A program made the translations under genes and the position numbers. This document shows positions 1,447-54,525 of a stretch of 54,525 bases of DNA, in pieces. A model generated the notes under the pieces. The model saw nothing but the letters and a program-made list of their open reading frames with translations, was not told the origin of the DNA and made no database searches. The DNA is from a virus, in UHGV virus genome UHGV-0179380. One strand, given 5' to 3'. The first letter of the stretch is position 1; the number at the start of each line of letters is the position of its first letter.

Positions 1447-1533
1447 ATGGATAACTTAATGAAAAATTCATTTGTATTCAATGTGTTATGCTTTGTTTTT
1501 GTTTTTGATTTATCATTTTGGTCACTATTTGGT

Positions 1534-1566
1534 ACACAAAAAGAAACGAGGCGTTAGCCTCGTTTC
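1534..1566 (-). terminator. rho-independent terminator after tail fiber gene
   Basis: stem gaaacgaggc/gcctcgtttc with gtta loop followed on minus strand by T-run (plus acacaaaaa). Confidence 0.7.
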
Positions 1567-1595
1567 GCGCGGCGATGTTCTTCGCACATCACCTC

Positions 1596-52604: not shown

Positions 52605-53255
52605 ATGACGAAGAAAACCCCTTTTGCAATAGGCGCAATGTTCCACCGCTTCCGTGGTGATATTCATCCTTTTGAAGTAACCACGTTTTCAAGTTATTAC
52701 GATTTTGGGACGGAGTATTACGCCGGATCTAAGGTAGGCGGTGAATCTTATACGCTGATGGCTAATACGTGGCGCTTTGTGCGTTACTCTGAAAAGGATG
52801 ATGACGGCATGAATAAAGAAAGTGAAATCATTGATGAATTAATCGAAGATGAGCGCCATGATTGCGATGCGCCGGAAGTTACGGAATGGAAACCAGGAGA
52901 AAAGCCGCCGTGCGGCGTGTGGCTTGATTGTATTGGATTAGCAAGTGATAGAGTGATTGATGTCGTTAAGTTTTTCTACCTGGGCGATAAGTGGTCTATT
53001 GCTCACAGTAAGTTAGAAACGGGTATAGAAACACCGATTGCATGGAAACAATACTCATACCGCATTCACATTGACCCGAAAGAAAAAGCAATGACACGAA
53101 TTGCGTTTGCGCTGGCTGTTGAGGTTATTGGTGAAGATGCGGCAAAAGAGATTAACTTTAACCGCGACAACGAATTTTCGCGCGATTGGCGCAATATGGC
53201 AAAAGCCATTATTAATGGCGATATTCCTTTTACTAATTACAATGGTGATGAGTAA
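52605..53255 (+). CDS. hypothetical protein
   Basis: 216-aa ORF. Confidence 0.5.
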   Translation: MTKKTPFAIGAMFHRFRGDIHPFEVTTFSSYYDFGTEYYAGSKVGGESYTLMANTWRFVRYSEKDDDGMNKESEIIDELIEDERHDCDAPEVTEWKPGEKPPCGVWLDCIGLASDRVIDVVKFFYLGDKWSIAHSKLETGIETPIAWKQYSYRIHIDPKEKAMTRIAFALAVEVIGEDAAKEINFNRDNEFSRDWRNMAKAIINGDIPFTNYNGDE

Positions 53256-53473
53256 TGGATAAGATCGGGACAATCCTTATTAATCGTGAGCAAGTGCAAA
53301 AAATGTTAGGCGGGCTTAGCAAGTCCGCCTTTTTTAAGCTCGTTAAAAAATGGAAAGATGCTGGAACTCCTTTCCCTGAACCTGTTAAGGGGATGCCAGC
53401 ATTAAAGCGCGGCGGATCTCTTTACCGTTATCAGGATGTTATTTCATTTTGTAAATCAATGGGCTTCATGTAG
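53255..53473 (+). CDS. excisionase-like / AlpA-type DNA-binding protein
   Basis: 72 aa; HTH-like segment; convergent with and adjacent to integrase. Confidence 0.55.
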   Translation: MDKIGTILINREQVQKMLGGLSKSAFFKLVKKWKDAGTPFPEPVKGMPALKRGGSLYRYQDVISFCKSMGFM

Positions 53474-54525
53474 TAATCAGCCAGTTTATTCATCGCCTCG
53501 ATTTGCTCCCTCACATAATCATACTGATCATATATAGCCATCATTCCCGCCAGTTTATGACCTAAAACCTTTTCGGCTACGTGCGGCGCAATGCCAAGCG
53601 CTGAAAGGTTTGTCCTTGCAGTGCGGCGTAGATCGTGACACGACCACGGCTCGCCGCCCATCCTTAGCATCAAATCCCTTGCGGCTGTTTTCGGCACGCT
53701 CCTGTCTACCGCTTCATCCCTTCCAGAAAGCACGGGAACGAAGATAAAATTAAAGCCGTGCAAATCCATAGCTTCACGCAATAAATCAACGCTAACGGCG
53801 GATAAACCGCGTTTAAACTCGTTTCTGTTCTTACTCAATGCGCCCGGCACGGTCCACACACAGTTATCAAGATCGAAATGCTCGCGCCTTGCGTTTGTTA
53901 GTTCGCTTGTTCTGCATCCGGTGAATATAATCAGCTTCATCAATATCTGATTTAGCTGCGCCATTTTTGAACTGTCTATAATGCTGATTAGATGGTGAAT
54001 CTCTTGTATTGATAAGACGCGTTTTCTTTGCGCCGGGTTTTTGCCTACGTCTTTCACGCGTAGTAATGATATGTCGTCACGCTCCACGCGGCGGCGGCGC
54101 ATGGCATATTTTATCACCGCCTTCATCCTGTTTAAGACTATCCCGGCCTGAACGGGCGCGCCACCATTAGCTACCTTTCTAAAAATCCCCTCCCACATTA
54201 TGGAGTCCATATCATCGACGATATAGCTACCGCATGGTCTGACAATGTGCTTACTTAGCATCGCATCGACTTGCTTATAGTTGACCATGTTTCTTGCCTG
54301 CGGTGATTCCATGTACTCCCTAACAATATCTTCAATCGTTGCCCGTGTCGTAACGCGTGACAAGTTCATTCTTTTTACGATCGATGGATCTCGTCCTGAG
54401 TTTAAGACTTCCTTATGCTCCGCCACCGCCGCGCGGGCTTCTTTGAGTGTTATTTCTCCGTATGTGCCGATCTTCATCCGTCGAGGCTTGCCGTTGAATC
54501 GGTAGCGATACTGGAAAGATATAAC
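53431..54525 (-). CDS. int: tyrosine integrase (N-terminus beyond window)
   Basis: frame open to window end; C-terminal catalytic region with HDLRRTARTNL and LGH...Y tyrosine-recombinase signature. Confidence 0.85.
   Translation of the reverse strand, partial: VISFQYRYRFNGKPRRMKIGTYGEITLKEARAAVAEHKEVLNSGRDPSIVKRMNLSRVTTRATIEDIVREYMESPQARNMVNYKQVDAMLSKHIVRPCGSYIVDDMDSIMWEGIFRKVANGGAPVQAGIVLNRMKAVIKYAMRRRRVERDDISLLRVKDVGKNPAQRKRVLSIQEIHHLISIIDSSKMAQLNQILMKLIIFTGCRTSELTNARREHFDLDNCVWTVPGALSKNRNEFKRGLSAVSVDLLREAMDLHGFNFIFVPVLSGRDEAVDRSVPKTAARDLMLRMGGEPWSCHDLRRTARTNLSALGIAPHVAEKVLGHKLAGMMAIYDQYDYVREQIEAMNKLADYYMKPIDLQNEITS

Follow-up and report, generated by a model that had tools for sequence, protein, structure and literature searches.

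Does the gene order of a temperate phage genome in which the late genes follow the N-like side of the repressor reflect real biology, and how would such a genome be expressed? The virus genome UHGV-0179380, a stretch of 54,525 nucleotides that we analysed over its whole length (the window; all coordinates below are its own unless stated otherwise), raises this question. An earlier, sequence-only reading had placed everything from an N-like gene through recombination, nin-like, lysis, head and tail genes on one strand downstream of pL, in an order that departs from lambda's, and both claims were borne out here. We found that the window is very probably a prophage of the mEpimmI (mEp021-like) group of E. 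coli phages, integrated at abgT and made of lambda-type parts with the early block reversed relative to lambda. The order is real, conserved and group-specific, and no artefact. It is not new, as had been implied, since the same architecture is standard for the published mEpimmI group (Negrete-Mendez et al. 2025, Front Microbiol; PMC11893012). Architecture, repressor, N-like protein and nut sites are already in the literature and GenBank; the part of that paper at hand presents the architecture, does not call it inverted with respect to lambda, and leaves operators and promoters undefined. What interest remains is in a switch without cro and in a dispersed motif.

The layout is best seen by following the two strands. 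On the minus strand, descending from 46362, we found cI, the N-like gene, Erf/SSB/Abc2, the methyltransferases, NinG, RusA, Q, lysis, head and tail genes and a tail fibre gene ending at 1596. The plus strand carries, between 46669 and 53473, the initiator genes, a PHROG 704 protein, DnaB, a MarR/Ren-like protein, NinB, an open reading frame (ORF) without assigned function and a xis-like helix-turn-helix (HTH) protein. Cumulative GC skew drops to approximately 46 kb and rises after it. The minus-strand genes from the repressor to Q are as follows.

45715 to 46362, minus strand: CI-type immunity repressor (HTH_3, E 5e-13; Peptidase_S24, E 4e-19; lambda cI 32%, E 5e-23)
44924 to 45214, minus strand: N-like antiterminator, homologue of Gp17 (PHROG 271, E 4e-13; 92% identical to mEp021 gp17)
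38098 to 44774, minus strand: delayed-early accessory and recombination region (two DNA methyltransferases, one of them Dam, several proteins without assigned function, Abc2, SSB and Erf)
44133 to 44774, minus strand: Erf, within the delayed-early region
43717 to 44133, minus strand: SSB, within the same region
43423 to 43707, minus strand: Abc2, within the same region
36618 to 37830, minus strand: nin-type gene block (RusA, NinG, NinF-like)
37654 to 37830, minus strand: NinF-like ORF, named by the mEp021 annotation only (no Pfam match)
37034 to 37729, minus strand: NinG (family match; lambda NinG 53%, E 2e-59)
36618 to 37037, minus strand: RusA (family profile match)
35724 to 36452, minus strand: Q-type late antiterminator (PF03589, E 3e-30; 33% identity to lambda Q, E 1e-39)

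A tblastn search with lambda proteins placed M, L, K, I, J, NinG, Q, Rz and cI on the minus strand and NinB on the plus strand. In lambda itself, cI is opposite to M-J, NinG, Q and Rz, and NinB is co-oriented with NinG and Q. Because these strands differ from lambda's own, cI and NinB are inverted relative to the nin-Q-late genes. The content of the two sides agrees with this: the N side is of pL type (N-like, Erf and Abc2 as in P22), and the replication side is of pR type up to ninB. The order of the window can be derived from that of lambda by one inversion whose breakpoints are xis|recombination and ninB|ninF; this is a formal description only, and that an inversion took place is something we infer. 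The N-side array is not uniform in orientation, with 10 of the 104 coding sequences between tail fibre and N-side promoter in the MagusPhagus annotation counter-oriented, as small islands in the tail module.

Every hallmark of the mEpimmI group that we tested was present in the window: synteny, repressor, Gp17 with its arginines, three nut sites, and integrase type with the matching insertion site. We begin with the insertion site and the alignment with free phages.

1 to 1446, plus strand: 3' part of the host gene abgT (match annotated as abgT in over 4900 E. coli genomes), with the prophage at its 3' end
1429 to 1446, no strand assigned: left prophage junction and att core region, where homology to free phage starts, overlapping the last abgT codons

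The window from 1429 matches MagusPhagus (PP925836) from 9062 at 99% identity, with TATCCGCTTATCTTTTGA common to both. The prophage thus begins at about 1429, inside the abgT 3' end, and not at 1447 as previously read. Megablast matches among phage records were confined to the mEp021 family: mEp010 (PP180001) spans 88% of window 30000-54525 at 87% identity, and MagusPhagus spans 93% of window 1447-26000 at 94% identity. In a direct comparison, 50,017 of 53,079 bases aligned with MagusPhagus at a mean identity of 94.6%, fully collinear as a circular permutation (window 1429-45714 corresponds to MagusPhagus 9062-54396 and window 45715-54525 to MagusPhagus 1-8811, every piece in the same orientation). 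Two patches had no MagusPhagus match, 30250-32431 (the small-ORF array between Q and holin) and 2023-3437 (the middle of the side tail fibre, a protein that over short stretches matches its counterparts in unrelated coliphages). Against mEp021 (MH706966) and its relatives, coverage was 70-93% and identity 85-94%, in keeping with the synteny expected of the group. An Rfam scan of the whole window gave no family above threshold.

The group is described as Nus-dependent, non-lambdoid temperate E. coli siphoviruses, with 48 genomes of high synteny and four integrase types, each tied to its own insertion site; phages with type II integrase insert at the abgT 3' end (PMC11893012). The window integrase matches those of mEp010/013/044, and the junction falls within the abgT 3' end. 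Nus dependence of the window phage is suggested by its rrn-like boxA sequences, and siphovirus morphology by its siphovirus-type tail genes.

We next considered the antitermination system, whose elements are listed here.

45563 to 45591, minus strand: early N-side promoter, placed like lambda pL (TTGACT-17-TATATT, 10/12 matches; TACAAAATGGA abuts the -35)
45258 to 45307, minus strand: nutR1 candidate, boxA-like GCTCATTAACAATC with a GCCGC/GCGGC hairpin (same sequence as mEp021 12225, upstream of gp17)
37846 to 37891, minus strand: nutR2, at the entry to ninF-ninG-rusA-Q, boxA GCTCTTTAAAAA with a boxB hairpin (identical to the mEp021 site at 20172)
46527 to 46572, plus strand: nutL, before the replication genes (identical to the mEp021 site)
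45692 to 45709, minus strand: terminator after cI, equivalent of mEp021 t1 (sequence scan; mEp021 TERM_1)
30171 to 30189, minus strand: terminator just upstream of the holin gene, equivalent of mEp021 t5 (7 pairs, 6 of them G-C, and a T run; TERM_5 lies directly before the mEp021 holin)

The N-like protein is 92-99% identical to its counterparts in the mEpimmI phages and, in the phage collection searched, was confined to the group's 7 records. Its arginine-rich motif has R17, R19, R20, R21 and R24, and so includes the R17, R19, R20 and R24 that are conserved in the group. Gp17 antitermination acts at three nut sites, of which nutL and nutR2 are most alike; nutL lies in the divergent region between repressor and replication genes, nutR1 upstream of gp17 and nutR2 after the methyltransferase, and the N/late side is named 'right' (nutR1, nutR2) and the replication side 'left' (nutL) (PMC11893012). 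Terminators t1, t2 and t5 of mEp021 were demonstrated experimentally (PMC11893012). All three nut sites of the window are at the positions published for mEp021, with nutL and nutR2 identical in sequence to their mEp021 counterparts. Compared with each other, nutL and nutR2 share 17 identical bases followed by approximately 65% identity; this likeness is confined to the ~45 nt of the functional site, over which duplication is indistinguishable from shared constraint. A second boxA-like site was seen at 45507-45520, near nutR1, and terminator-like sites were found in the delayed-early region at 43163-43144, 40892-40868 and 40714-40688 (minus strand).

Taken with the mEp021 data, these elements make it most likely that an N to Q to late cascade runs along one strand away from cI, and that replication and the putative excisionase form a separate divergent branch. 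In the lysogen, cI would be made and its transcript would stop at t1. Upon derepression, the N-side promoter (45591-45563) would yield nutR1 and the N-like protein, and polymerase modified by it, together with host Nus factors, would read through the terminators of the 7-kb accessory and recombination region. Polymerase would be loaded again at nutR2, the entry to ninF-ninG-rusA-Q, and Q would let transcription pass t5 into the lysis, head and tail genes. The divergent promoter would yield nutL and the replication operon, which contains the putative origin and ends in the putative excisionase, while the integrase would be a separate convergent gene with attP upstream.

Several observations weigh against this account. 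The cascade is read from the window's sequence and from mEp021 data; no good sigma-70 match that might serve as a Q-dependent late promoter was seen between Q and t5; and since cro and cII were not found, the lysis-lysogeny decision can be likened to lambda's only in part. The orientation of the integrase gene does not fit a single inversion, and no inverted repeats flank the early block. Lastly, the 44-kb array probably does not form a single operon, as five or more promoter-like sites within it carry a conserved 10-mer, among them a pair just upstream of nutR2.

This 10-mer, TACAAAATGG, has 8 exact copies in the window, 9 in MagusPhagus and 4 in the first 30 kb of mEp021, and none in lambda, CobraSix or BUCT566. 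When an 11-mer was searched with up to one mismatch, 19 matches were found in the window against 1.5 expected, and none of 100 shuffles reached 19. Sites of TACAAAATGG include 45593-45602, 46436-46445, 37976-37985, 37911-37920, 32176-32185, 16314-16323, 16340-16349, 12882-12891 and 49484-49493, among others. The copies are mostly intergenic, often as palindromic pairs or directly upstream of a -35-like hexamer; at least five abut such a hexamer with a -10-like hexamer 17 nt on, the N-side early promoter among them. In the control region between cI and the replication genes, a copy falls within the spacer of the putative replication-side promoter, roughly at -40 with respect to a pRM-like -10. 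A pair of copies flanks the hairpin just upstream of nutR2, and divergent promoter-like pairs in the late region also carry it. In 44 relatives the motif keeps its positions relative to cI and is enriched ~110-fold. The part of PMC11893012 at hand does not mention the motif. We also observed that GTGATC recurs ~20-26 nt from several copies, and that the hairpin flanked by the TACAAAATGG pair upstream of nutR2 contains CGTGA-N6-TCACA at 37947-37962 (minus strand). The latter sequence is close to the CRP consensus.

The motif may be an operator of Rep or a site of another regulator, and its placement suggests several internal promoters in the array. It is conceivable, though we would not favour it, that the 44-kb array is held together by TACAAAATGG as a dispersed and apparently undescribed control site. 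The strongest rival to the cascade takes this further: the lambda framing would be misleading, the array would consist of separately promoted units under the dispersed site, and that late genes follow pL would say little about their regulation. The excess of mostly intergenic copies abutting -35 hexamers, their presence at both early promoters and just upstream of nutR2, their conserved positions in relatives and their absence from the three phages named above all speak for it. On the other hand, several sites have a weak -35 or -10, the role of the motif is read from sequence, and the published antitermination by N-like protein, nut sites and terminators already explains long read-through. 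We therefore hold it as a tentative minority view, and one that is compatible with antitermination. If the motif were an operator of Rep or of another phage regulator, the group would have a cro-less switch with operators spread along the genome, for which the stoperators of mycobacteriophage L5 offer a parallel; on that view, the inversion would have produced a nin-Q unit with a promoter of its own, and the third nut site would act on this unit.

Returning to the cascade from cI, its starting point depends on the repressor being correctly identified. Misassignment of cI orientation had been proposed as a way in which the order might be explained away. The domain content of the protein and its likeness to Rep021 (189/198 residues identical, 95.5%, with the HTH region identical) uphold the assignment and point to an immunity I repressor. 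Rep021 expressed alone excludes all 6 tested group phages, and terminator t1, which follows its gene in mEp021, was demonstrated experimentally (PMC11893012). The region upstream of the repressor gene holds the following.

46363 to 46668, no strand assigned: divergent control region without a conserved ORF, holding the TACAAAATGGA motif at 46435-46445, a promoter at 46422-46449 and nutL at 46527-46572 (plus strand)

The putative replication-side promoter, TTGATC-16-TAAACT (46422-46449, plus strand), is weak, with 8/12 matches. The plus-strand operon had been read as cro-replication-NinB-xis; its replication genes and NinB are indeed divergent from cI, but there is no cro, and the xis label is weak. 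Neither cro nor cII gave a match with lambda proteins by tblastn in the window, and no cIII homologue was found in it. The first plus-strand gene (46669-46923), in the position of cro, encodes the winged helix of a replication-initiator N-terminus (PHROG 4617, E 8e-19; Pfam HTH_36). Identity of this 84-amino-acid protein ranges between 30 and 100% in relatives that have an almost constant cI; a Cro partner of that cI would not vary in this way. The only ORF of the 307-bp divergent region, 46310-46615 (101 amino acids, annotated in MagusPhagus), belongs to no family, contains nutL and is interrupted in 27 of 45 relatives, some of them 99.3% identical.

The lack of a cro, together with the published naming of the N/late side as 'right', would fit a different view, that the S24-HTH protein is not the immunity repressor and that the N/late side is really the cro side. 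We regard this as very improbable, given that Rep021 with its identical HTH region acts alone against six group phages, that a terminator of its own follows the repressor gene, which, like lambda cI, lies between promoters, and that the genes downstream are of pL type. The protein at 45715-46362 is thus best taken as the immunity repressor. As regards the marks of a lambdoid phage, the window has the genes for N and Q antitermination (function has been shown for mEp021 Gp17 only), does not have the lambda gene order and has no cI/cro pair, there being no cro at the divergent promoters; it falls outside the lambdoid phages on gene order and the cI/cro pair, though its parts are lambda-like.

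The divergent branch consists of the replication operon, with the integrase gene converging on its end.

46669 to 47979, plus strand: split replication initiator (84-amino-acid winged helix at 46669-46923 and a 350-amino-acid DUF4373/Lin1244_N protein with a P22 gp18-like C-terminus)
48376 to 49494, plus strand: PHROG 704 'DNA repair exonuclease'-like protein (PHROG match)
49513 to 50934, plus strand: DnaB helicase (family/PHROG match)
51013 to 51561, plus strand: MarR/Ren-like protein (family/PHROG match)
51996 to 52427, plus strand: NinB (lambda NinB 52%, E 5e-48)
52605 to 53473, plus strand: 216-amino-acid ORF without assigned function and the xis-like gene, last of the plus-strand operon (position next to int)
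53255 to 53473, plus strand: 72-amino-acid xis-like HTH protein (position; AlpA in Pfam at E 0.19 only, sub-threshold)
53431 to 54525, minus strand: tyrosine integrase of group type II (Phage_integrase; arm-binding domain starting at profile position 46), open to the window end

Inside the 350-amino-acid initiator gene, at 47313-47400, we found four GGTCATGA iterons and, after them, an A-rich tract; this set appears ori-like and resembles the lambda origin inside gene O. A PDB sequence search with the 84-amino-acid winged-helix protein returned nothing useful. For the xis-like protein, we found no NCBIfam match and nothing meaningful in a PDB sequence search, and a single-sequence AlphaFold model had a predicted local distance difference test score (pLDDT) of 55.5, too low for a fold search. 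Its label is therefore tentative, given by position and the sub-threshold AlpA match. Within this ORF, we noted a strong terminator-like hairpin (53308-53349, plus strand; 10 pairs and a T run) with boxA-like GCTCGTTAAAAA immediately after it. Expression of the 3' part, or read-through antisense to int, might depend on antitermination here.

The integrase had been read as ending the replication operon. We found it on the minus strand instead, convergent with the plus-strand operon and with attP upstream; it overlaps the xis-like ORF by 43 nt (53431-53473). Its 5' end lies beyond the window, with ~47 codons missing; MagusPhagus int has 411 amino acids and is 98.6% identical. In MagusPhagus, the tail fibre gene and int are on one strand, with int downstream at a distance of 192 bp and one small ORF, and the interval between them (8945-9229) contains attP, repeated CACGATAGAA-type arm sequences and a strong terminator; a consensus scan of the attP-int interval gave no int promoter. 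Since attP stands between the tail fibre gene and int in the free phage, integration separates int from the late array. The orientation of int was the same in all 27 relatives that yielded the gene, whatever their integrase type.

The integrase module, being of another type (attP upstream of int, arm-binding PF13356) and exchanged between types within the group, might lead one to see two adjacent elements in the window, a replication/integrase remnant beside a separate phage with cI, N, Q and late genes. Free plaque-forming phages hold the same set as one 54-kb genome, with the tail fibre gene joined to int across attP. Furthermore, replication genes are present on the plus strand only, a single cI stands between both early promoters, and no second att site, immunity module or replication module was seen in the window. 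Two elements are accordingly an even poorer prospect than a misread repressor, and we continue to treat the window as one prophage.

In order to see how far the layout extends, we compared it with relatives. It was present in 44/44 close IMG/VR relatives (cI 91-100% identical), with no exception. Wherever such a relative reached the gene in question, N, Erf, SSB, Dam, NinG, RusA and Q were downstream of cI on the cI strand, initiator, DnaB, NinB and the xis-like gene were on the opposite strand, and int was on the cI strand. The immunity region was found in 35 of 5426 complete E. coli genomes, always collinear, and in 29 of these at least 80% of the query lay in one place. In strain 09-00049, the abgT junction is ~44 kb from the immunity region, on the same strand. 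The mEp021 and MagusPhagus annotations have a strand layout identical to that of the window. No inverted repeats were found around the early block except the pairing nut sites. An active invertible switch was also considered and rejected, as there are no flanking inverted repeats and all relatives have one orientation. Assembly rearrangement, which had been named as a possible refutation, is excluded, since free phages and many independent genomes are collinear with the window. That the order is an assembly artefact or a recent strain-private inversion has next to no chance of being true, since nothing was found in its support, the same order and strands recur in 7 independently sequenced phage genomes, 44 IMG/VR contigs and 35 E. 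coli chromosomes, and no inverted repeats flank the block. Separately, three more distant IMG/VR contigs (L052-L054), whose cI is just 38% identical, have RusA or Dam homologues on the side opposite cI, which suggests the canonical order beside a related repressor.

The rest of the minus-strand array, with its counter-oriented islands, is made up as follows.

30252 to 35727, minus strand: ~25 small co-oriented ORFs between Q and the lysis genes (ORF calls; MagusPhagus annotation)
28995 to 30146, minus strand: lysis cassette of Rz-like spanin, endolysin and holin (Phage_lysis, Phage_lysozyme and holin families; lambda Rz, E 1e-18)
29946 to 30146, minus strand: holin, in the lysis cassette
29453 to 29944, minus strand: endolysin, in the lysis cassette
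13930 to 27174, minus strand: tape measure, tail shaft, head (decoration, morphogenesis), portal and terminase (PHROGs, E 1e-43 to 1e-156)
26689 to 27174, minus strand: TerS, in the head module
25208 to 26692, minus strand: TerL, in the head module
20083 to 21135, minus strand: capsid, in the head module
16576 to 16995, plus strand: further counter-oriented island of small genes in the tail module (PHROG of unknown function)
13136 to 13898, plus strand: second counter-oriented small-ORF island, between M and tape measure (PHROGs 1525 and 13627; MagusPhagus CDS0033-0036)
4746 to 12794, minus strand: tail tip, with homologues of lambda J, I, K, L and M (each matched by tblastn, E 2e-13 to 2e-178)
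11535 to 12143, plus strand: island interrupting the tail-tip genes (small ORFs, PHROGs of unknown function)
4467 to 4715, plus strand: lipoprotein moron, Lpp-type superinfection exclusion in the group (PHROG 12984, E 6e-27)
1596 to 4289, minus strand: side tail fibre, last gene of the late array (PHROG 6578, E 4e-180; annotated tail fibre / S74 peptidase)
1533 to 1566, minus strand: intrinsic-terminator-like hairpin and T run, directly after the tail fibre gene and before attP (read from sequence)

The counter-oriented lipoprotein of the group mediates superinfection exclusion (PMC11893012). Several of the counter-oriented islands adjoin TACAAAATGG promoter-like pairs. The terminator after the tail fibre gene scores as a 10-pair hairpin in MagusPhagus.

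Finally, we compared the window with known systems. The mEpimmI phages mEp021, mEp010 and MagusPhagus have the same genes, order and strands at 85-94% genome identity, and share with the window the repressor (95.5%), the N-like protein (92-99%), three nut sites, type II integrase and the abgT site; differences are allelic or mosaic only (part of the tail fibre, patches of small ORFs between Q and holin, the initiator allele). The group is classed as non-lambdoid, with no recombination with lambda (PMC11893012). A Genome Research 2025 paper on Chi-rich lambdoid phages was also considered and concerns other phages, not mEpimmI.

Lambda and P22 resemble the window in having CI flanked by two early promoters, N-type boxA/boxB antitermination and Q, in their N, Erf and Abc2 (P22) and their initiator, DnaB (P22), Ren-like and NinB genes, and in NinG/RusA placed before Q; lambda shares the iterons inside the initiator gene and the M-L-K-I-J tail tip. 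Unlike both, the window has its early block inverted relative to nin-Q-late, Q on the N side, a xis-like gene at the end of the replication operon and a third nut site, with no cro, cII or cIII homologues found; its integrase is convergent with the xis-like gene and has attP upstream, and its head and terminase genes are unrelated to those of lambda. The integration module is rather like the P4/CP4-57 type in its PF13356 arm-binding domain, in attP upstream of int and in an AlpA-like small partner. The window has arm-like repeats between core and int start, and its AlpA match is sub-threshold (E 0.19).

Outside the group, the closest relatives of the head module, judged by major capsid identity, are Enterobacter phage CobraSix (63%) and the Pseudomonas phi297-like BUCT566 (56%). 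Both are, like the window, temperate siphoviruses with cI, NinG and a Q-like gene. Unlike it, they have the canonical int-xis-recombination-cI on one strand and cro-replication-nin-Q-lysis on the other, running into the late genes; because they keep the lambda order, the arrangement is specific to the group. In genome scans, lambda-based expectations mislabel such phages, as cro is not the gene beside cI and the contents of the 'left' and 'right' operons are exchanged. The group thus represents a natural rewiring of the lambda circuit, with Q coupled to the N/recombination operon, the putative excision function coupled to the replication operon and no recognisable Cro or CII. Comparison with it can help to tell which parts of the lambda switch are indispensable.

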